Shown here one piece after another: positions 106 to 15,355 of a stretch of 64,000 bases of DNA (its first letter is position 1; each line of letters starts with the position of its first letter). A program made the position numbers and the translations under genes. This DNA is from a virus, in the IMG/VR virus record IMGVR_UViG_3300021420_000021, positions 30,267 to 94,266 of that record; one strand, written 5' to 3'. Below the pieces are notes generated by a model, which was not told where the DNA came from, did not search any database, and was given only the letters and a program-made list of their open reading frames with translations.

Positions 106-498
106 GTTGGACAAGCTAAGATGGACGAACTCGTCTCGGTCGATTTGACCGAAGTTATCGAGTTGCCGTCTAGCGGAGTGCAATTCTTTCAGACTAACCT
201 AGTCACTCAAAGTAACAATTACAAGTCTGTTGCTGGACTTGTAGGTCTTCGGACTTACATTTTTGGCAGAGACGGCGTATTTGCTATCAATCTAGGTGCA
301 AAAGGCGACACTGGCTATGGTGATGGCGAGTGGCGGAATATAGAATGCAATATTATGCAGAACGTTGCACCGACCGTCGCGGACCCCGAAGGCCTCATAC
401 CGGGATGGACTTCTTACAGAGTTCATTTCACCACGAGCCTCGGACCCGATACTACGATTCGGCAGAGACAAATTGATGCCGCTTCAGCCATAAGCTAA
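103..498 (+). CDS. probable major capsid protein, C-terminal exon
   Basis: No SD before ATG 121, and the frame is open from ~94 after the intron-like sequence. The C-terminus (RTYIFGRDGVFAINL...ADPEGLIPGWTSYRVHF) resembles N4-gp56-like capsid ends, and the ORF precedes decoration-type genes. Confidence 0.55.
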   Translation, partial: PVGQAKMDELVSVDLTEVIELPSSGVQFFQTNLVTQSNNYKSVAGLVGLRTYIFGRDGVFAINLGAKGDTGYGDGEWRNIECNIMQNVAPTVADPEGLIPGWTSYRVHFTTSLGPDTTIRQRQIDAASAIS

Positions 499-573: not shown

Positions 574-627
574 GGGGTAGGGTGCCGCAATCACCTTACC
601 CTGATTCGATAGCTCTATTGCGGAGAG
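574..627 (+). promoter_or_regulatory. kissing-hairpin / pseudoknot element overlapping the SD (copy 1)
   Basis: Stem 574-584/592-602; loop CCGCAAT is perfectly complementary to ATTGCGG (617-623), itself the loop of CTCT/AGAG, overlapping SD GGAGAG. Confidence 0.7.
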
Positions 628-635
628 AAAATAAC

Positions 636-1220
636 ATGTTTGAAAAAGGCAATACTTTTAGTCAAGGCCGAAAAATTGGTTCGCACAGTGAACAAGAAAT
701 TCAAGCTTTAAAAGAACGCAATGCCGCCCGAAAGGGTCAACCTATCACATCTGAGAAAATGTTAGCCGCTTCGCGAGCGGGGTGCAAAGCAATGAACGCT
801 GTTAGGCACTTAAAAGCAGGCCATATTTTAGAAAATGTTGATTCTGTCGCCCTTACAGGTGATTGTCACATTTGTGGTCAAGTGCCGATTAAGGTAATGA
901 AGCATAGAGCGAATGGCGCTTTACGCGATCAATATTTATGTTGGGTTGGAACTCGTTGCAGAGAGACAGACGGAGCACCTGCCAAAGTCGCGTATAAGAA
1001 TCAAGCATTAGAGATGTGGAACAATCAACATGGCAATTGTGCTTTGTGTTACAAATACATGGTTCGCGCAGGAAACACCAACGAAGGTGCAACGTTAGAT
1101 CATTGTCACACGACCGGATTTATACGCGGCTTTATTCATCAAGGCTGCAATAAAGGTTTGGGTCACTTTTTAGACGACCCTGAAGTTTTAAAAATGGCTG
1201 CTGAGTATTTACTTAGATAG
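636..1220 (+). CDS. endonuclease VII-like (His-Me) free-standing homing endonuclease
   Basis: CALC...LDHCHTTGFIRGFIHQGCNKGLGHFLDDPEVLKMAAEYL; SD GGAGAG before ATG 636. Confidence 0.85.
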   Translation: MFEKGNTFSQGRKIGSHSEQEIQALKERNAARKGQPITSEKMLAASRAGCKAMNAVRHLKAGHILENVDSVALTGDCHICGQVPIKVMKHRANGALRDQYLCWVGTRCRETDGAPAKVAYKNQALEMWNNQHGNCALCYKYMVRAGNTNEGATLDHCHTTGFIRGFIHQGCNKGLGHFLDDPEVLKMAAEYLLR

Positions 1221-1240: not shown

Positions 1241-2464
1241 ATGCCTATCCCCGCACAAACAACGGGTCTTGGAACCGCCGTCGCAGTCACGTTGGCGGGA
1301 ACTGGAGTCATACAGGAAAAGACACCTGTTGCTGGAACTCAAGGAATTTCGCACTACAATGTAACTCTGTCTTTGTCCGGGACCGGATTTCCGAGCACTG
1401 TCGCGGTCAGTGCTTCGACCATTGACGTTGCTGGAAACGTCGTTAGTAATGGCGGCGCTTCAGGATCGACGCAATTGGGCGCAGCCGCCGCAGCTTATGC
1501 TATTCTTGCCGCTGCTGGAATTACTAATACTGGCGCGACTGTCATTTCTGGCGGAAATATCGGTTCGTATCCGACTGCAACTGAAACCGGATTTACCGGG
1601 GCAAATTTTGTTCCTCCGGCGACGACTGATAACGCTGATGCACAAGCAGGACTCGCCGCCGCTTTGGTAACATATAACGCGCTATCGGCTTTGACTTTTA
1701 CGTCTTTGTCCGCGTCTTCGGCCAATTTAAGCACTCTTGGTAACGGAAGTACAGCTTCGACTTATACCGCAGGTAATTATTCTGCTGGCACAAGTATGGA
1801 CATTCCGACGAGTATTACTCTTGACGCGCAAGGTAATCCCGGCGCGGTATTTATATTTAAAGCCGGATCGACACTGACTCTCGAATCTAACGCGTCTGTT
1901 CTTCTTGTCAACGGCGCTCAAGCCGCGAACGTTTATTGGCTGGTCGGTAGTTCATTTACTTCGATCTTTGGAACTGTGTCCGTCATGAACGGAAATATTC
2001 TTGCCAATACAAGTATTACTCTTGGCGGTGGCGTCCTGAATGGCCGAGCGCTCGCCGGAATTGTGACTTCATCTGGCGCAGTTACAATTGCGACTGCCGA
2101 AGCAATTACAGTTCCCGGATTTTCGCAAAGCACAGCTTCAGGAATGAACGCAGTTAGTTATAATGCATGGCCGCGTTTGGTTGGCGGCGTTACACAGACT
2201 CGCGATGGTGTGACTCGTAATGCGCAAGATGTCACTGTTTCTTATCCGGCTCCGACTTCAGGTCCGGGCGGCGTTGCTGATGTGTCAGATGTCAATAATC
2301 CATTCCTTGTTACCGCGTATCGTGTCGGTCAAGCGTGGGTCGAATTCTTTTCTCCAACTTTCGGAAATTCCGAACCATTGGCGACAGATATTGAGTCGAA
2401 TTTGACCGAAGGTTTTCCGACCGATAAGATACAGGCCCAACTTTTAGTAAACGTCGTGAAGTAG
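1241..2464 (+). CDS. virion decoration-type protein with inserted DUF3494 ice-binding-like domain
   Basis: nt ~1472-2116 encode YAILAAAGITNTGATVISGGNIG...ITLDAQGNPGAVFIF...LLVNGAQAANVYWLVGSS...GNILANTSITLGGGVLNGRALA; the flanks are paralogous to the next two ORFs. Confidence 0.85.
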   Translation: MPIPAQTTGLGTAVAVTLAGTGVIQEKTPVAGTQGISHYNVTLSLSGTGFPSTVAVSASTIDVAGNVVSNGGASGSTQLGAAAAAYAILAAAGITNTGATVISGGNIGSYPTATETGFTGANFVPPATTDNADAQAGLAAALVTYNALSALTFTSLSASSANLSTLGNGSTASTYTAGNYSAGTSMDIPTSITLDAQGNPGAVFIFKAGSTLTLESNASVLLVNGAQAANVYWLVGSSFTSIFGTVSVMNGNILANTSITLGGGVLNGRALAGIVTSSGAVTIATAEAITVPGFSQSTASGMNAVSYNAWPRLVGGVTQTRDGVTRNAQDVTVSYPAPTSGPGGVADVSDVNNPFLVTAYRVGQAWVEFFSPTFGNSEPLATDIESNLTEGFPTDKIQAQLLVNVVK

Positions 2465-2483: not shown

Positions 2484-3041
2484 ATGTCTAATCCAGTTCC
2501 TCCCCATAATCCTACTGACGGATTGTCGTCTGCGTGTTTTGTGCAGCTATCAGGCACAGGCGTTATTGTCGATCCGAAGCAGACAAGACCGCCGTCTGCT
2601 AATTACCCAAATGCAGGACATTATGAAGTTACTTTGAGTGTTTCTGGCGCAAATGGTTTAGCGTCTTCTGTCGTTATAACACCATCACTTGTTGATGTGT
2701 CTAATACAGCGTATGCTTCGACTGCTGCGTCTTGGGTTTATCGGTCGTATAACGATCCTCAAGTAACCGAAGCAAGTCTTCCAACAGGACCGGGAAATCC
2801 GACTAATCTTGCGCCGAAGCCGACGCAGACTGCGAAACTTGCGTCTGTTAGCGCATCTGGAGCATCAACAGTAACCGTCACTGCGCTGTCTCCGGGCAAA
2901 GCAATTGTATCCGCAATTTACCCCACCTTCGATAACGCAGAAGGAAATGTTACAGTTGGCAATCTTGGCGGACCCTTGGCCGGAACTACAGTGCCGAAAG
3001 ATTATATTTTTTCATTTCTCGATGTAAAAATATTTCCGTAA
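2484..3041 (+). CDS. Ig-like virion decoration-type protein (paralog of 1241 without the insert)
   Basis: Shared motifs T.GL...V.L.GTG, HY.VTLS.SG, DV, SYN, VTA...G.A.V. Confidence 0.6.
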   Translation: MSNPVPPHNPTDGLSSACFVQLSGTGVIVDPKQTRPPSANYPNAGHYEVTLSVSGANGLASSVVITPSLVDVSNTAYASTAASWVYRSYNDPQVTEASLPTGPGNPTNLAPKPTQTAKLASVSASGASTVTVTALSPGKAIVSAIYPTFDNAEGNVTVGNLGGPLAGTTVPKDYIFSFLDVKIFP

Positions 3042-4187: not shown

Positions 4188-4667
4188 ATGAAGTTACTAA
4201 ACCGTATTAGAACTTGGTTGCTTTATAAGTTATGGAAGCCAAAGGATAAATCACCCGAAGAACTAGAGTTTGCGAGAGAAAAAGGTAAGATTTTAACTCA
4301 GCAAAAACAATGGGATGATCAAAGACATGTCGGATGTTCACACCTTAAAGGCGGGAATGTAGGGAACGTGTTTGGCGGCGATTTCAGTAAGTTTGCCCAA
4401 GGTTGGTATAACGGACAAAATGGGCAATACGCAGTAATCAAGCATCAGATGGCGAATGGCGATATTTATGTAAACTGTTTACGATGCGGTAAGAAGTGGA
4501 AAAAGCCAATAAGATCGTCATTTAAGAAAGAACAAGATTACTTAATAGCTCTTGCAGAGTACGAAACTGCTGTGAAGTTTCCTACGAATAATAGCATGTC
4601 TACATCGATTCAATTACGATTTTCTGACAATGGCGAAGCGCATCGTAAAGCGATAGAGAATAGTTAA
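4188..4667 (+). CDS. Zn-binding hypothetical protein (paralog of 5936..6577)
   Basis: CSHLKGG...QYAVIKHQM.NGDI.V.CLRCGK.W; strong SD GGAGGAGG. Confidence 0.75.
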   Translation: MKLLNRIRTWLLYKLWKPKDKSPEELEFAREKGKILTQQKQWDDQRHVGCSHLKGGNVGNVFGGDFSKFAQGWYNGQNGQYAVIKHQMANGDIYVNCLRCGKKWKKPIRSSFKKEQDYLIALAEYETAVKFPTNNSMSTSIQLRFSDNGEAHRKAIENS

Positions 4668-4693
4668 ATTTCGCAGTGTCATGAACTGTGAAC

Positions 4694-4736
4694 GGGCGAT
4701 AGCCTTCTACTATCGCCCACTCTTTAGAAGGGAGAG
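4694..4736 (+). promoter_or_regulatory. kissing-hairpin / pseudoknot element overlapping the SD (copy 2)
   Basis: Stem GGGCGATAG/CTATCGCCC; loop CCTTCTA is complementary to TAGAAGG (4725-4731), the loop of CTCTT/GAGAG. Confidence 0.75.
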
Positions 4737-4740
4737 AAGT

Positions 4741-5280
4741 ATGCGAATTGAAACAAACATAAGAAGCATTAAAGATTTATCCAACATGAAATTTGGTAGA
4801 TTGATACCGATTATGCCTATTGCAAAAGATAGGTTTAATAAGACGATATGGCTAATGTTGTGCGATTGCGGCAAGACAAAAGCTATAAACAGCGCAAATT
4901 TGAGTTCAAAACATACTCAGAGTTGCGGGTGTTTACGCGATGAGTGTCAGTCTGCGCTTAAACATGGTGCTAGTTGTCGCGGTAAGATAACGCCTGAGTA
5001 TCAAGCTTTTAGAGCGGCGAAAGAACGCTGTACTAACCCAAAGAATAAAGCATATAAATATTATGGCGGAAGAGGAATCGAGTTTCGTTTTGTTAGTTTT
5101 GAAGAGTTTTTTGCGGAGATAGGTTTACGACCCGACGCGATGTCGCTAGATAGGATTGAGGTAAACGGGCATTATGAAAAAGGGAATGTTCGTTGGGCGA
5201 CTCAAAGTCAGCAAGTACAAAATCGTAGATCACAGCCTGAAATTCTTTTACAGTATGCGGCAGCATTAGGAGGAGTGTGA
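4741..5280 (+). CDS. HNH homing endonuclease
   Basis: CDCG...SCGC; RC.NP...YYGGRGI...SLDRIEVNGHYEKGNVRWAT; start moved to the ATG after the SD. Confidence 0.85.
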   Translation: MRIETNIRSIKDLSNMKFGRLIPIMPIAKDRFNKTIWLMLCDCGKTKAINSANLSSKHTQSCGCLRDECQSALKHGASCRGKITPEYQAFRAAKERCTNPKNKAYKYYGGRGIEFRFVSFEEFFAEIGLRPDAMSLDRIEVNGHYEKGNVRWATQSQQVQNRRSQPEILLQYAAALGGV

Positions 5281-5951
5281 GTCAACCAACACAAGAGGAG
5301 ATTCAACGTCTTCAGGGAACACGGCTCAATACGGAGAAAGCACCGTGGCAGACGTATTCTGAGGAGTTGGATGTGAAGATGTCGCCAGAGTTAGCGGCAG
5401 AAGTTGCCGACTACAGCACGCGATATCACGACTCAGAATCTAGTAATCAGAATAAAGAAGAATTGGCCCGATGGCAAGAGCAGAATTATGACGCGATGGG
5501 CGAATATCGATGGGCAAGTCCAGAAGAATATGCCGATATTGAAGCTCGAATCGGACGAATTATGCATCACAGCGAATTCGTGACGCGATTGAAGAAGATC
5601 GGCGTTCGATGTGCGTTACGCGATCATCCGCAAACAGATAAATTGACTTTGCTTGTACAACGCGGAAATGATGTTTTAAAGCCATATGAAGTTGGATGTT
5701 GGATAAAGAATGGATTCGCGCCAGAATTTTCAGTCATGGGATTTGATGAGCATGGAGTTCCACTCGCAGAGCGTTACAGGGGTTGGCGCACCGCGATTCT
5801 TCAGCTTATTCTTAAACAAGTATTGACGGAAGAACAAGCGCATAAAGAATTTGGAAGTACAGATCGATGTTGTGCCGGGAGATATAATTCAATACTTCAC
5901 GGCATCAGGAATACAGTAGATAAAGAGGAGGAGCAATGTCAGACGAAGTAA
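5277..5951 (+). CDS. hypothetical protein (head cluster)
   Basis: 224 aa, SD AGGAG, overlaps both neighbours. Confidence 0.7.
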   Translation: MSQPTQEEIQRLQGTRLNTEKAPWQTYSEELDVKMSPELAAEVADYSTRYHDSESSNQNKEELARWQEQNYDAMGEYRWASPEEYADIEARIGRIMHHSEFVTRLKKIGVRCALRDHPQTDKLTLLVQRGNDVLKPYEVGCWIKNGFAPEFSVMGFDEHGVPLAERYRGWRTAILQLILKQVLTEEQAHKEFGSTDRCCAGRYNSILHGIRNTVDKEEEQCQTK

Positions 5952-6577
5952 AGAAACATTCTGCGACAGAAGAGTTGGCGCAGTTAGACTTACAGATTAA
6001 GCGCGAAGAACTTGAACAGTTGAAATTGTCAAGACAAGAGCGCGAATATTCGATCAAAGATTTGAAAGGAAGACTAGCCGAGCGCGACGTAAAAGAACTT
6101 CAGAAGAAAGAAGATCGTGAAGCGCAAGGCCGGACTTTCGCGCAGCAGAGAGGAACTGACGAAGCTCGTTGGAAGATTTGTACGCATAAAAAGGGCGGAA
6201 ACGTCAGTCAGCGCGATATGCGTGTTCTGAGTACAGGCGGAAACGCCGCGCAATACGCAGTTATGAAGCACCAGATGATTAATGGTGATATTTGGGTCCG
6301 TTGTTTGCGTTGCGGTAAAACTTGGTCGCCGCCGCTGAAATCGAAGTTCTATTTTGATAATCGCGGTAAGCAAGTTCCGGCGCATTCGGGCGAATTTAAC
6401 AAAGACCGTTTTGACGCAGCAGTTCTTGATTATCAACGCGCAGTTGCATTCGAAACGAATAATACGATGTCCGGATCGGTCCAAGTTCGGTTCTCCCGAT
6501 GGGACGAAAAGAGTCAGCAACTCGTTGATGCATCGAAAGACTACGCCGAATCGATTGCCGATACGACATTGCGCTAG
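5936..6577 (+). CDS. coiled-coil plus Zn-binding protein (paralog of 4188..4667)
   Basis: CTHKKGG...QYAVMKHQMINGDIWVRCLRCGKTW...FETNNTMS. Confidence 0.75.
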   Translation: MSDEVKKHSATEELAQLDLQIKREELEQLKLSRQEREYSIKDLKGRLAERDVKELQKKEDREAQGRTFAQQRGTDEARWKICTHKKGGNVSQRDMRVLSTGGNAAQYAVMKHQMINGDIWVRCLRCGKTWSPPLKSKFYFDNRGKQVPAHSGEFNKDRFDAAVLDYQRAVAFETNNTMSGSVQVRFSRWDEKSQQLVDASKDYAESIADTTLR

Positions 6578-10456: not shown

Positions 10457-13400
10457 ATGTCGAACGCGTTGCAGGCCGCTGGCGCTCAGCCGGACAAACA
10501 AACTAAATTCACAAATTTATATACAGGCCGTTTCTTTTCAGGAATCTGGACAAATCGTTCTCCATTACGTGATGCTGCTTCGACTCGAATAGAAGAAAAG
10601 TTTTACGGGCCACGTGGCGATGCAATGATCGCGGGATCGAACGTCGAAATTACGAATAGGCTGACTTTAGGTCGAAGACCCGGAAATCCGGTTTACGACA
10701 ATGTTAATACTTTTACTAATGTTCTGAGTTTTGACGATTTTCGTATCAGCAAGGGCTTATCTGACATTTTCGGAACGGTGACCGAACAAGTCGATACAAT
10801 GATCGACACAAGCGCTGCTCTATTTGCCGAGAATAGTGCTTTTGTTCTTCAAGGCGGCGTCAATCCAACGACAGTATTTACGAAGTCTCCCGGCGCGGGA
10901 CAAAGTTATGGAATTCAAGTCGGAAACGAATGGTATTTTGGCAACGGCGCGGATAATAAAAAGTGGCTTCAGTCTTTATTTGTTCGATCAAGTGCAAGCA
11001 ATAATGCGACTTTAAATCTTAATTCGTATCCGTTCATGGATACATTTTTGATTAGTAATCCGACGACGAATCCGCAGATTCAGCAATTAATTGGTGCCGC
11101 TGTTCAATCGGGCGCGTCAGGTTCAGTCAATAATATTAACGTCACGAACGTCGTTTTGACGAATGAAGTGTTGACACTTACGACTTCCGCCGCTCCGTTT
11201 ACGACACAGCCTATTGGCACGCAGTTTATGCTATGGGGATTTACAAATCCTGCTACGACATTTTTGAACGGTTCGACTATTACTTTGACTGTCGCTTGGT
11301 CGGGAACGACTATTACTGCGACTTGGACCGGAACGCACGCAAATATGTCGCAGGCGGATACAGCGGTCATTCAAATTGAAAAAGGTGGTACGAACTCTGT
11401 TACAAATACACTTGTACTCGGTCCTACGGTTCCGACATGGGGAACAGTTGCGCCAAGTGCCGCTAACGATTTCATGGGCAGTGTAACGATTGACGGACAG
11501 GCGATTTGGGTCAATCGTGGAATAACTGTCGAAAATTGGGGATTAGCAGCACCGACTGAAGATTTGACTTCAGGTCCGGGCGGAATTTCGTTAACTGGTG
11601 CGGCTTCAGGATTTTCTCCAAATACGTTTTTTGCTCCAGCAAGTGTATTCATAGACCCTAATGGTAATTTATGGGAAGTGACAACCGGAGGCAAATCTGG
11701 CGCAACTGAACCTGCTTGGCCCGCTTCGCCTACGTTTAGTGTAAAGCATGACATTTTTGCAGTTTCAGTCGCAGCTAACGTCGCGACTATATATTGTACG
11801 ACTTTGCCGAGTCCGGGTCAAAGTGTGCAACTTTTCGGGTTACAACAAGCGAACGGAAATGGCGGCGCGCCGAATCTCAACGGCGTGACTTTGACCGTCG
11901 CGACAACCGGAGCAAATTTCTTTACTGCGCCTTTTACGTTCTCAGGGACTTATCCGGCGACTGGTGATGGCGCGGATCAAGGATATGCTATATTTTATGG
12001 TACGACTCAAGCAGACGGAAGTGTAGTCTGGACAAGTCTGCAAAGCGCCGCATCGATGGTTTGGGCTGCGCATACGCATTATCATCAAGATGATTTTTTA
12101 GTCGCGCCTACAGGGTCGAGTACATCGTTATTTCGGTTAAGCAAGAATACGCAACCGTTTATTCAGTCTGATGGAGCGCTATTAAGTACTCTTTATCCAA
12201 CGTATAATTCAAGCCCGATAACCGGATCGTTTAACGCGATTGCAAATCCGATAACTATTAATTCTTGGGCGGATAATTCTAATCCCGCCCGAGGGTTTAA
12301 CGGCGCGTTTAGTCAATCGTATTTATCGGTTCCGACATCCGGATCAGCCGCTGTTTCTACGCCTGTTCCGGGGTCTTTATACGCCGTAACAAATTCGACA
12401 GCAGGCGGCGGACCCGAACAAAGCGGGCCGAACGTCTACTTCTTTGCCGTCAACGGCGCGGGCGAAATAGGTGCGTCAACAGATAGCGGACAAGCTCAAA
12501 ATTGGGAAGCTTCGTTTATTTGTAAAATTTACATTCCTGCTCCCGGAACTTATACGTTTTCTCTTTTACACGATGATGGTGCTTTTTTTTCATTCGATAA
12601 TATTTCTACTTCTGCGTTTTTGACTATTGGTTCGCAGACGAATGTTCCGCCAACGTTTTCCGGATCAGGCGGAAAAACTGCTATTCAAGGTTATACCGGA
12701 GTTGTCGGAAATAATAACTCCGGCGTTACTACAGATTCAGCGACTTGGAGATTTCCAACAGCAGGCGATTACACATTAGAAATTAATTGGAAAGCTTGGC
12801 AAAACGCAGAAGAGATGATTTTTACTTGCCAGAGTTTTAATCTTGCAAGCAGTCCCGACGAATCCGGAACAAATCAACCTGCTTGGCCCGCTTTTACGAC
12901 TACTGGAGCGACCGCGAGTACGACGACTGGAATTACGTTTGGTACAGGCGACGTTATCAAAGAAGCAGGCGGTCAGTATACGTGGAGCAATTTAGGTCCG
13001 ACGAGCGCATATAATGTCTGGTTTGCAAATACGACTTATACCGTGTCAGGAACGCCGATTGTTGATACGAATGGAAATGAACAGCTTCCAATTCAACCCG
13101 GCGTAACTGGATCGACTGCGCCTGTATTCAACGGGACATTGAACGGGATTACGACGATATCCGGATCAACGTTACAGTTTATCAACGCCGGAGGTGTGCC
13201 AATTCAGCCGAACACTCCGGGAAAGATTACGGCTACGAGCGCCCAAGGTTGGATTTATGGGATCGCACTTGTCAATACGTTAGATAATACTGTTTCGAAT
13301 ATTGGGCCGATAGGCCCGCCGAACAGCGCAGGCGGTGTAGGAACAGGGCCACTTATTAGCGGACAAGTTACGTTCTCTCCGGGTGCGGGATTGCCAACTG

Positions 13401-15355
13401 ATCTGACTCAAATCGATCCACAAGCTGATTACGTAGCTATTTTTAGAACGACTGACGGTTTTTCGACTTTGTTACTTATACCGAGTAACGGAAATACCGA
13501 TTATACTGTTCCGTTGACTCAGTATTTACAAAGTGGTTATGTTGATACGACGCCCGATACAGGCTTAGATACGCTCATTCAAGCTGCCGCAGCCGGAGAA
13601 AACACCCCTCCGCTACCGGGCGCGGTTAATCTGACGTATCATTTAAACCGTATTTGGTACTCAATCGGCAATACTGTATATTATACAACCGGGCCGTTAG
13701 CGCCAGTAGGAAACGGTATTAATGGAACTTCGCCATTGAACTTTGACGGTGTGACTTCTTTAATCACTCGATTAGTTCCATCTTCGATAGGCATGTTAGT
13801 GTTCACCGTTTCGGATATTTATATAATCCCGAATCAGGGCAGAACGATTCTTCCGAGTCTTCCGTATGTTCCGGGCGTAGGATTGTCGAGCTATAATGCT
13901 CTTGATATATCAGGGCCGTTAGTCGGCTTCTTTTCGACTGATCATCAGTTTATTAACTTCAATCCTAGCGCGGGCGTCAACATCGTTTCGATGCCAATTG
14001 GCGACCAGTTCCGTAAGAACACCGGACAACCGGGAACATCTTGGAACCCGAAAAATGTCTACGTCGCTTGGTATGTCAACGGCGAAGACATGGGATGGTT
14101 TGTTGCGGACGGCGTTAATGGGTGGTATAGGCTGATTAACAATCCCGCACCCGATTTCGGGCAAAGCTGGAGTCCGTTTGCCACAATTGTAAACGGCGTA
14201 AAAGCTATTAAATCTGTTGAAACCGCTCCGGGAGTACATAATTTACTTCTAGGCCCGTCTTCTTCAGCACCTATTAATCCTTCTCAGTTAGGATCAGCCG
14301 GGAATTACGCACTACTCGCGTATTCTGGAATTACAAATACAGGTTCGTCTGTCATCTTCGGGAATGTTGGTACTGTGACTGCAACGGTTACTCCGGGTGG
14401 ATGGACTCTTGTTCCGCCATCAGTCATAGATAACGCAGACGCAGCAACAGCCGAAGTCGCCGCTCTTGCCGCGTATAATTTTTACGCAGCATTGACGCCA
14501 ACGAAATCCGGGCTGTCTAATCTTTCGACAGGCGGAAACGGAAGTACAGCTTCGACCTATACAGCCGGAGTTTACGCCGGAGCGTCGAGTTTGTCGATGC
14601 CGACAGGAATTACTCTTGATGGCCAAGGTAATACTAATTCTATATTCGTATTCCAAGCCGGATCGACTGTAAATCTTGCGTCCGGACAATCGGTCAATCT
14701 TATTAACGGCGCACAAGCAAGCAACGTATTCTGGGTCGTTGGTACTTCGCTAACAACTGTTGCAACAAGTACAATGGTCGGGACAATTCTTGCTCAAATA
14801 TCTGTCACATTAGGCGGCGGAATTTTGAACGGGCGTGCTCTTGCTGGAATCGGCGGATCAAGCGGGGCGGTAACTATTTCTGCCGCAACTGCGATTACTA
14901 TTTCAGCCGGATTGCCGACAGGTTCCGGATTTATTCGATTTAGAAATCTTGATGCTTCTTCCGATGGCGGAACAGGATTGACGAACGGATTGACTTATCC
15001 TGCATACGGAGTATTCGGATCATACGTACTCGCGCAACCCGGTCAAGTCGCGCAAGTTGCATTCGTTACGACTGACTCAGTAAATACGGGAAGTCCGTTA
15101 ATTTTAGGGCTTTTGATAGACGAAGCTTTGCCTTATTTTACCGGAAGTTTTGAGATGTTGAAGAACTGGACGACCGATCCTCCGGGATTACCCGCCAGTA
15201 AATCAATTCTCGGACAACGCTTTTATTTGTCTGAGCTTCCCAATTCCGCAGCGGCGTTACGCCATATGCAAATCATGTGCCAATGGCCTAGCGAAAGTGC
15301 GCTTAATGAATTGCAGAGCTTTACGGTATTTGGCGATTATGTTCAGGAGCAGTAG
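10457..15355 (+). CDS. large tail nozzle / tubular B-like protein with PA14-like, CBM-like and DUF3494 inserts
   Basis: N-terminal NVEITNRLTLGRRPG typical of nozzle proteins; PA14-like IYIPAPGTYTFSLLHDDG (~12500-12830); DUF3494 at ~14285-14910. Confidence 0.7.
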   Translation: MSNALQAAGAQPDKQTKFTNLYTGRFFSGIWTNRSPLRDAASTRIEEKFYGPRGDAMIAGSNVEITNRLTLGRRPGNPVYDNVNTFTNVLSFDDFRISKGLSDIFGTVTEQVDTMIDTSAALFAENSAFVLQGGVNPTTVFTKSPGAGQSYGIQVGNEWYFGNGADNKKWLQSLFVRSSASNNATLNLNSYPFMDTFLISNPTTNPQIQQLIGAAVQSGASGSVNNINVTNVVLTNEVLTLTTSAAPFTTQPIGTQFMLWGFTNPATTFLNGSTITLTVAWSGTTITATWTGTHANMSQADTAVIQIEKGGTNSVTNTLVLGPTVPTWGTVAPSAANDFMGSVTIDGQAIWVNRGITVENWGLAAPTEDLTSGPGGISLTGAASGFSPNTFFAPASVFIDPNGNLWEVTTGGKSGATEPAWPASPTFSVKHDIFAVSVAANVATIYCTTLPSPGQSVQLFGLQQANGNGGAPNLNGVTLTVATTGANFFTAPFTFSGTYPATGDGADQGYAIFYGTTQADGSVVWTSLQSAASMVWAAHTHYHQDDFLVAPTGSSTSLFRLSKNTQPFIQSDGALLSTLYPTYNSSPITGSFNAIANPITINSWADNSNPARGFNGAFSQSYLSVPTSGSAAVSTPVPGSLYAVTNSTAGGGPEQSGPNVYFFAVNGAGEIGASTDSGQAQNWEASFICKIYIPAPGTYTFSLLHDDGAFFSFDNISTSAFLTIGSQTNVPPTFSGSGGKTAIQGYTGVVGNNNSGVTTDSATWRFPTAGDYTLEINWKAWQNAEEMIFTCQSFNLASSPDESGTNQPAWPAFTTTGATASTTTGITFGTGDVIKEAGGQYTWSNLGPTSAYNVWFANTTYTVSGTPIVDTNGNEQLPIQPGVTGSTAPVFNGTLNGITTISGSTLQFINAGGVPIQPNTPGKITATSAQGWIYGIALVNTLDNTVSNIGPIGPPNSAGGVGTGPLISGQVTFSPGAGLPTDLTQIDPQADYVAIFRTTDGFSTLLLIPSNGNTDYTVPLTQYLQSGYVDTTPDTGLDTLIQAAAAGENTPPLPGAVNLTYHLNRIWYSIGNTVYYTTGPLAPVGNGINGTSPLNFDGVTSLITRLVPSSIGMLVFTVSDIYIIPNQGRTILPSLPYVPGVGLSSYNALDISGPLVGFFSTDHQFINFNPSAGVNIVSMPIGDQFRKNTGQPGTSWNPKNVYVAWYVNGEDMGWFVADGVNGWYRLINNPAPDFGQSWSPFATIVNGVKAIKSVETAPGVHNLLLGPSSSAPINPSQLGSAGNYALLAYSGITNTGSSVIFGNVGTVTATVTPGGWTLVPPSVIDNADAATAEVAALAAYNFYAALTPTKSGLSNLSTGGNGSTASTYTAGVYAGASSLSMPTGITLDGQGNTNSIFVFQAGSTVNLASGQSVNLINGAQASNVFWVVGTSLTTVATSTMVGTILAQISVTLGGGILNGRALAGIGGSSGAVTISAATAITISAGLPTGSGFIRFRNLDASSDGGTGLTNGLTYPAYGVFGSYVLAQPGQVAQVAFVTTDSVNTGSPLILGLLIDEALPYFTGSFEMLKNWTTDPPGLPASKSILGQRFYLSELPNSAAALRHMQIMCQWPSESALNELQSFTVFGDYVQEQ

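Follow-up and report, generated by a model that had tools for sequence, protein, structure and literature searches.

DUF3494, also known as IBP-1, is the main microbial ice-binding family, and its members have so far been described as secreted or cell-surface proteins. Here we report a DUF3494 domain in P1, a protein encoded by a 64,000-nucleotide (nt) stretch of viral DNA, hereafter the window, which corresponds to bases 30267-94266 of the 94,266-bp IMG/VR virus record IMGVR_UViG_3300021420_000021 (completeness estimate, 99%). In P1 the domain is nested inside a scaffold protein whose gene lies close behind the major capsid protein gene, and the virus particle probably displays the domain on its surface.

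The characterized microbial DUF3494/IBP-1 proteins, among them IBPv (5UYT), AnpIBP (7BWX), EfcIBP (6EIO), and FfIBP (4NU2), share with P1 the Pfam family, the triangular, helix-braced beta-solenoid, and a Ser/Thr ladder on the b-face of the solenoid that includes the equivalents of AnpIBP S153 and T156. These proteins are secreted or cell anchored and have signal peptides, whereas P1 has none and carries the domain nested in a phage head-module protein; moreover, the P1 cassette belongs to a separate phage clade with at most 47% identity to the cellular copies. SfIBP_1 from Shewanella frigidimarina (6BG8), a proposed ice adhesin in which DUF3494 is accompanied by Big domains, resembles P1 in combining DUF3494 with immunoglobulin (Ig)-like domains, the proposed role of which is to keep the binding domain away from the surface. 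In proteins of the SfIBP_1 type, however, the domains stand in tandem on a cell-surface protein, whereas in P1 the solenoid lies inside a loop of one Ig domain, presumably carried by a virus particle.

Among phage proteins, T4 Hoc, T5 pb10, and phi29 gp8.5 are, like P1, small accessory Ig-like proteins encoded by head-module genes, and the role proposed for them is the one proposed here for P1, namely, a weak multivalent adhesion that keeps virions near their hosts. The head-fiber gene of phi29 also comes right after the capsid gene. Neither sequence homology nor specific structural homology was found between these proteins and P1, the fold matches are generic, and capsid binding by P1 is a prediction. 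To our knowledge, no protein of the T4 Hoc, T5 pb10, or phi29 gp8.5 type carries a nested DUF3494 domain. With respect to viruses, PF11999 "ice-binding-like" genes on Arctic Ocean viral contigs have been interpreted as auxiliary metabolic genes for the cryoprotection of the host (Rahlff et al. 2024, PMC11515562). The common point is that viruses of cold habitats encode this Pfam family; the architecture of the Arctic Ocean genes was not analyzed in that study, whereas here the domain resides in structural-module proteins of what appear to be Acidobacteriota soil phages, as a phage-specific, swappable cassette.

The sole related deposited phage is Tunturiibacter phage Tunturi_3 (PP885686), the portal protein of which is 58.6% identical to that of our record. 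Tunturi_3 is a podovirus with a 77-nm head, a 21-nm tail, and a 97.6-kb genome; it comes from Arctic tundra meadow soil, its host is Tunturiibacter psychrotolerans (Acidobacteriota), and its metagenomic kin are found in Stordalen Mire permafrost peat but also in soils of Indiana, Colorado, and Washington (PMC11924767). The gene orders of the window and Tunturi_3 are collinear. Tunturi_3 gp7, encoded directly after the capsid gene gp6, is the counterpart of P1 in its post-capsid position, its N-terminal scaffold motif (hhalign, residues 1 to 66; E value, 1.9e-5), and its C-terminal Ig hairpin, whereas its middle part is an insert of ~180 residues that is unrelated to DUF3494 and has no Pfam match. 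A tblastn search detected no DUF3494 domain in the Tunturi_3 genome.

P1 carries a complete DUF3494 domain

P1 carries a real, complete DUF3494/IBP-1 fold. The initial annotation of the window, a model's reading of the sequence without database searches, had recognized a DUF3494 signature at ~1472-2116, and PF11999 (Ice_binding) indeed matches P1 with an E value of 3.6e-35 and 122 bits, well above the cut-off of 28.7. The match spans residues 88 to 283 (nt 1502-2089) and covers positions 1 to 202 of the 208 in the profile, and it was confirmed on the genome. An AlphaFold2 model of P1 built from 30 full-length orthologs has a predicted local distance difference test score (pLDDT) of ~90 over residues 78 to 292, residues that correspond to the coordinates given in the initial annotation, and in this region a beta-solenoid is braced by one long alpha-helix, the only one present (residues 134 to 149), as is typical of the discontinuous triangular solenoid of DUF3494. 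The top 31 Foldseek matches in the PDB were all DUF3494 ice-binding proteins, with target template modeling (TM) scores of 0.60 to 0.82; the best of them, which include 9LHN, 7BWX, 6EIO, 5UYT, 4NU2, 3WP9, and 6BG8, reached 0.75 to 0.82 at 30 to 38% identity. At the sequence level, phmmer aligned P1 with IBPv (5UYT) with an E value of 2e-27. A tblastn search of 50,697 phage records with P1 and with the domain alone returned nothing at an E value of ≤1, a search in which the low-complexity filter may mask weak matches.

A signal peptide at the N terminus of P1, the absence of which the initial annotation had already pointed out, was considered and rejected. By inspection, there is no basic n-region, and the N terminus consists of the conserved strand motif of the scaffold, which is kept in the paralogs and is modeled as beta-strands at residues 15 to 19 and 24 to 27.

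The domain is inserted into a loop of an Ig-like scaffold

The DUF3494 domain of P1 is a true internal insertion in a loop of a Big_2-like Ig scaffold. P1 is followed by two insert-free paralogs, P2 and P3 (Table 1). In P1, the DVAGN motif occupies residues 62 to 66 (nt 1424-1438) and the SYN motif occupies residues 306 to 308 (nt 2156-2164), whereas the equivalent motifs in P2 and P3, DVSN...SYN and DVAGN...SWN, are merely 13 to 15 residues apart. Because the DVAGN and SYN strands flank the insert in P1 and lie this close together in the paralogs, the solenoid can be placed in an Ig-domain loop. BLASTP aligned P1 with P2 at 40% identity (E value, 2e-10) over the N-terminal ~70 to 80 residues, followed by a collinear C-terminal match, and a C-terminal hairpin with the pattern VTA..G.A.V....P.F.N is common to P1, P2, and P3. 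A profile hidden Markov model (HMM) of 28 insert-free paralogs, designated A3, matched P1 twice, at residues 2 to 71 (3e-10) and at residues 353 to 406 (2e-7), with the DUF3494 domain in between, and the same two-piece match was obtained with P1 orthologs on other contigs. The motif positions and the two-piece HMM match agree with the initial annotation, which had placed the insert between DVAGN and SYN and had described the genes starting at 2484 and 3060 as paralogs that have the same motifs and no insert.

The model of P2 (pLDDT, 70) consists of one Ig-like sandwich over residues 15 to 185, as judged with VIA-align. An arrangement in which the insertion lies between two separate domains was rejected, as this single Ig domain extends across both flanks. 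The Z scores of P2 were 8.0 to 8.4 to SbsC, LigA, and Big_2-CBM56; further fold matches were the phi29 gp8 Ig domains, the Douge capsid protein, the SU10 tail protein 7z47_G, and lambda gpV, with Z scores of 6.5 to 8.4 overall, and the ESM Atlas structure rows for P2 include Big_2 clusters. No Pfam match to Big_2 or PKD exceeded its cut-off (PKD, 17.5 bits versus 23.5 for P2; Big_2, 17.1 bits versus 22.8 for a relative). A profile search of the PDB with the paralog alignment gave nothing meaningful, and a capsid-profile search of the PDB gave weak N-terminal matches only. No PHROGs family was found for P1, P2, or P3, and neither PHROGs nor the PDB profile search revealed homology of these proteins to characterized decoration families (Hoc, pb10, gpD, Dec, and gp8.5).

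The architecture of the DUF3494 fold is compatible with such an insertion. According to a passage in PMC11645318, the first and last coils of DUF3494 proteins stack on each other, and in AnpIBP the order of the coils is beta1-beta6-beta5-beta4-beta3-beta2 (PMC7277481). With the first and last coils stacked, both chain ends exit at one end of the solenoid, which makes insertion into a loop geometrically easy.

A scaffold gene beside the capsid gene is widely conserved, and its loop varies

Across the relatives, the scaffold belongs to the core genes of the capsid neighborhood, and its loop is a plug-in site. A scan with a nine-sequence capsid-protein alignment identified 322 viral stretches; 80 loci were examined, 35 of which continue for 2.5 kb or more beyond the capsid gene in the downstream direction. 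A gene of the scaffold family was present within 4.5 kb downstream of the capsid gene in 31 of these 35 loci. One bare scaffold gene encoding 162 to 211 amino acids (aa) was found in 14 loci, a DUF3494-bearing scaffold gene, usually beside a bare one, was found in 8, and a long scaffold form of 234 to 398 aa with other inserts was found in 10. The order of the bare and insert-bearing genes differs among the relatives. No Pfam families were found for the alternative inserts, which are a pool of uncharacterized display modules. Scaffold proteins of 307 to 398 aa with inserts of 100 to 230 residues in the same loop, all without a Pfam match, are encoded at loci L199, L200, L204, L207, L215, L226, L229, L231, L235, and L239.

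The cassette forms a phage-specific lineage

The DUF3494 cassette is phage specific and has repeatedly moved among virion proteins. More than 800 homologs of P1 occur in metagenomes. The identity of full-length orthologs to P1 is 40 to 85%, and many other proteins of 300 to 700 aa have the domain alone in common with it, at 60 to 78% identity, often on contigs of 60 to 110 kb. Relatives are encoded in 117 viral stretches and include proteins of 1400 to 2100 aa with an internal domain. The phage-clade copies are 56 to 78% identical to the P1 domain, whereas the closest bacterial copies, taken as the best matches among 185,579 species genomes, are 36 to 47% identical. These closest cellular copies come mostly from Acidobacteriaceae and other Acidobacteriota, from Streptomyces and other Actinomycetota, and from Chloroflexota; the domain is often C-terminal in proteins of ~570 to 1400 aa, and in Acidobacteriaceae genomes it lies at the ends of proteins of 1100 to 1400 aa.

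In a FastTree phylogeny of 146 domains (63 viral and 83 cellular), one clade with a Shimodaira-Hasegawa (SH)-like support of 97 contains 56 of the 63 viral copies and stands apart from all 83 cellular copies. Capsid-adjacent proteins, giant proteins, and other contexts are interspersed within this clade, and the distribution of the scaffold context requires at least four changes on well-supported branches. The record itself holds a second cassette, located within a 1632-aa virion protein (Table 1), which represents an insertion relative to the homologous Tunturi_3 gp19, where residues ~1000 to 1012 flank the insertion site. A recent duplication as the origin of the two copies in this genome was rejected, as they are 56% identical and are not sisters in the tree. 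In GenBank, Tunturi_3 gp19 is labeled a head decoration protein. A separate observation concerns a 96,133-bp contig from a metagenome-assembled genome (MAG) of Acidobacteriaceae (L085; JAOAPC010000012.1), which has the size of a phage genome and codes for a DUF3494-containing protein of 817 aa (tblastn with P1 residues 15 to 366; 38% identity). This may be a phage or prophage contig, hinting at the hosts of DUF3494-bearing phages.

The insert is under purifying selection and has a conserved Thr/Ser-rich face

The insert is under strong purifying selection. In a comparison of P1 with an 85%-identical ortholog, the ratio of nonsynonymous to synonymous substitution rates (dN/dS) was 0.087 for the insert, 0.14 for the N-terminal scaffold part, and 0.19 for the variable C-terminal loop, values derived from this one ortholog pair, with a proportion of synonymous differences (pS) of ~0.5.

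The b-face was mapped onto P1 from the ice-binding site of AnpIBP by means of a phmmer alignment at 30% identity, that is, from residue correspondence and not from coordinates. The six predicted b-face rungs of P1 are AGiTnT, GAvTiA, TSiTlG, SSfT..G, STlTlE, and TSiTlD, and column 4 is Thr in all six (T95, T282, T260, T240, T213, and T193). P1 residues S237 and T240 align with S153 and T156 of AnpIBP, the Tyr mutants of which lose activity (PMC7277481). Across the 56 phage-clade copies, mean entropy was 0.79 at the 24 outward positions of the b-face, 0.90 at the inward positions, 1.33 in the rest of the domain, and 1.66 in the brace helix, and in 10,000 random draws of 24 positions from the rest of the domain, the entropy was never as low as that of the outward b-face. 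In these copies, 86% of the residues at the outward positions are Thr, Ser, Gly, or Ala. That an exposed surface is under the same constraint as the core points to the b-face as the putative binding face. The initial annotation had proposed structure prediction and inspection of the Thr/Ser-rich face; the model has the IBP-1 fold, and the face, as assigned here, is both rich in Thr/Ser and conserved.

A multivalent adhesin on the virion surface is the favored explanation

Taken as a whole, the best explanation for these results, to which we assign a probability of roughly 55%, is that the record represents a Tunturi_3-like podophage of an Acidobacteriota host in which P1 is an accessory protein of the virion surface and acts as a multivalent adhesin. 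The Ig base, composed of the conserved N-terminal ~70 residues and C-terminal ~55 to 100 residues, would anchor P1 on the particle; the likeliest site is the capsid, where P1 would be a decoration protein or head fiber. The loop between DVAGN and SYN serves as the plug-in site, here filled by the complete DUF3494 beta-solenoid, which, having both chain ends at one end, may stand out from the loop like a peg. Among several virion proteins, including the 1632-aa tail-region protein of the same phage, the cassette has been swapped. The Thr/Ser-rich b-face, presumably flat and the most constrained exposed surface, would be the working face, and many copies per particle would turn the virion into a multivalent adhesin that holds to an ordered, hydroxyl-matching surface. 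Independently of the ligand, such a particle would stay in the places occupied by DUF3494-encoding hosts: since Acidobacteriaceae, the likely hosts, encode DUF3494 in large proteins, a domain displayed like an adhesin would retain the phage on the substrate of its hosts. With regard to the ligand, we divide our expectation among ice in frozen soil or its quasi-liquid layer (~40%), a polysaccharide of the host or matrix (~35%), and a mineral or something else (~25%).

Several points weigh against this explanation. The location of P1 in the virion, or on the capsid, is something that we infer, and GenBank annotates Tunturi_3 gp7 as a tail fiber protein. The Ig matches are generic, a Z score of ~8 being the usual best for any model, and they include tail as well as head proteins; in the searches with P2 (Foldseek against PDB and BFVD, VIA-align wide, and ESM Atlas), head and tail are not separable. 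The scaffold models are of moderate confidence (pLDDT, 60 to 85), and the single ortholog pair behind the dN/dS values and the low identity behind the b-face assignment are to be counted here as well.

Ice as the ligand is suggested by the homology of P1 to proven ice binders with the key residues kept, by the cold-soil ecology of the sole cultured relative, and by the published activity of canonical DUF3494 proteins. This raises the possibility that the virion itself is ice binding: dozens to hundreds of functional DUF3494 domains on the capsid, together with the tail copies, would form a natural multivalent ice-binding nanoparticle, which might anchor the phage to ice-grain surfaces or brine veins in frozen soil or shield it from recrystallization damage, and soil phages would exchange the cassette as an adaptation to cold habitats. 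We put this forward tentatively and regard it as somewhat doubtful. In the majority of relatives, the Arctic Tunturi_3 among them, the corresponding loop is bare or holds another insert; the cellular domains closest to that of P1 belong to common soil bacteria; members of the DUF3494 family are found in habitats that do not freeze as well and may bind other substrates; and the cassette is also found in tail-region proteins, where binding to the host surface is the usual task. In addition, the Thr/Ser ladder is equally conserved in bacterial relatives from ordinary soils, and it therefore marks the family rather than ice binding in particular.

Alternative explanations

The alternative that survives best also has P1 on the virion, with the DUF3494 face binding a host or matrix polysaccharide (capsule, extracellular polymer, or lipopolysaccharide) in a reversible primary adsorption, as Hoc-type Ig proteins or the beta-helices of tail spikes do, and without any role in ice binding. 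We consider this a serious contender that nevertheless falls short of an even chance. The same cassette is present in the large tail-region protein and in many phage proteins of 800 to 2000 aa, and the insertion loop is variable, with other inserts in 10 of 35 loci, as expected of a specificity module. The lack of a detectable DUF3494 domain in the Arctic Tunturi_3 and the origin of the closest cellular domains, which belong to bacteria of temperate soils, Streptomyces among them, and to MAGs from Danish soil, are consistent with this alternative, as is a literature that treats DUF3494 as ice binding and substrate binding alike. However, no demonstrated glycan ligand for any DUF3494 domain was found in the literature examined, P1 is 30 to 38% identical to proven ice binders with the key b-face residues kept, and the Tunturi_3-like phage group is prominent in cold soils.

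A second alternative is that P1, P2, and P3 are short fibers or appendages of the neck or tail, anchored to the tail or an adaptor through their common N terminus, an arrangement resembling that of podophages in which a single adaptor bears several receptor-binding proteins. Paralogs with a conserved N terminus and variable distal parts are typical of fiber sets, SU10 tail protein 7z47_G and models of phage tail fibers are among the Ig matches, and the tail fiber label of Tunturi_3 gp7 would fit; this label, however, is an automatic structure-based annotation. The P1, P2, and P3 genes come directly after the capsid gene and are separated by three small, non-structural-looking genes from the block that matches the Tunturi_3 structural and tail genes (gp12 onward), and the bare forms of 160 to 210 aa are single Ig domains without a trimerization module. 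On balance, we regard a fiber as less likely than the anchoring of P1 on the capsid.

In a third alternative, P1 is the product of an auxiliary, non-virion gene that is released at lysis or secreted and cryoprotects the host or the lysate, for which the PF11999 genes on Arctic marine viral contigs (PMC11515562) provide a published precedent. This appears very improbable: by inspection P1 has no signal peptide and begins with the conserved scaffold strand motif, its domain is nested in a core head-module family that is present in 31 of 35 relatives, and a second copy is nested in the 1632-aa structural-module protein. Finally, the idea that the insert is a functionless passenger in a permissive loop, although the loop accepts many different inserts or none, is already disfavored and close to negligible, given that the dN/dS of 0.087 is the lowest among the parts of P1, that the exposed b-face is as conserved as the core, and that the cassette has been maintained as a lineage, with at least 56 distinct copies in phages.

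Genomic neighborhood of P1

The initial annotation stated that the P1 gene follows the capsid gene, and this proved correct: the window begins with the 3' part of the major capsid protein gene, and the sole gene between it and P1 encodes a free-standing EndoVII-type (PF02945) endonuclease (window 582-1220). The capsid fragment is 77 to 84% identical to residues 219 to 343 of the uninterrupted 343-aa capsid proteins of relatives and 78% identical to Tunturi_3 gp6; in the relatives, the capsid protein is encoded by a single uninterrupted open reading frame (ORF) of 341 to 344 aa. The upstream part of the capsid protein matches the phrog_1357 major head protein. Upstream of the window, the order is large terminase, SU10-type portal (PF23899), GT4 glycosyltransferase, 5' part of the capsid gene, and LAGLIDADG endonuclease ORF. 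The genes of P1, P2, and P3 are separated by 18 to 19 nt, each is preceded by an A/G-rich site resembling a Shine-Dalgarno sequence, and there is no terminator in between.

TABLE 1 Positions of the P1 locus and related features in the window
Feature	Position	Strand	Basis or remark
3' part of the major capsid protein gene	121..498	+	5' part and LAGLIDADG-bearing intervening sequence upstream of the window
P1, scaffold protein with nested DUF3494 domain, 407 aa	1241..2464	+	Intact ORF
P1 N-terminal scaffold part, residues 1-75; conserved TGLG...GTG motif and DVAGN strand	1241..1465	+	
DUF3494/IBP-1 beta-solenoid cassette, residues 77-293; brace helix 134-149	1469..2119	+	Pfam, AlphaFold2, Foldseek
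P1 C-terminal scaffold part, residues 294-407: SYN strand, variable loop, Big_2-like hairpin G.A.VEF..PTF.N	2120..2461	+	
P2, insert-free paralog, 185 aa, single Big_2-like Ig sandwich	2484..3041	+	Model; 20 homologs
P3, second, more divergent insert-free paralog, 195 aa	3060..3647	+	C terminus matches Tunturi_3 gp7
Second DUF3494 cassette, residues 1276-1482 of the 1632-aa virion protein (ORF 10457-15355)	14282..14902	+	PF11999, E value of 1.4e-31

The capsid gene is split into a 219-aa 5' part and a 125-aa 3' part around the LAGLIDADG ORF (L003 14819-16765; genome 28818-30764), and the interruption looks like an intron carrying a homing endonuclease. The distance between the capsid gene and P1 is 246 nt in some relatives (L165 and L168) and 939 nt in others (L166 and L170), which suggests that endonuclease-type genes are gained and lost at this spot. 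The gene for the GT4 glycosyltransferase (L003 12253-13245; genome 26252-27244) is situated between those for the portal and the capsid protein; in Tunturi_3, this region holds a hypothetical gene and an acetyltransferase gene. P1, P2, and P3 are rich in Ser and Thr and might be glycosylated, which would matter for binding assays. Further downstream, two paralogous genes (window 4188-4667 and 5936-6577) that match Tunturi_3 gp9 and gp11 share a zinc-ribbon-like motif, CLRCGK.W; an endonuclease-like ORF (4681-5280) and a gene encoding 224 aa are located between them.

Implications

Our literature search found no paper linking DUF3494 to phage virion proteins. Three features appear to be new: a domain nested in the plug-in loop of a scaffold encoded beside the capsid gene, a swappable cassette with a lineage of its own in phages, and the occurrence of this cassette in Acidobacteriota soil podophages. 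In this setting, a family known from secreted and cell-surface proteins points to a module of the virus particle. If ice binding is true, no earlier case of a virus particle with a structural ice-binding function was found in the literature searched; it would provide a mechanism for phage persistence and host encounter in soils that freeze and thaw, as well as a natural multivalent ice-binding scaffold. If the ligand is another, the phage would offer a tractable system in which to find a ligand of DUF3494 other than ice, which has long been sought. In both cases, the loop of the scaffold represents a natural display site, and the Acidobacteriota phages that have it are an abundant group that has hardly been studied.

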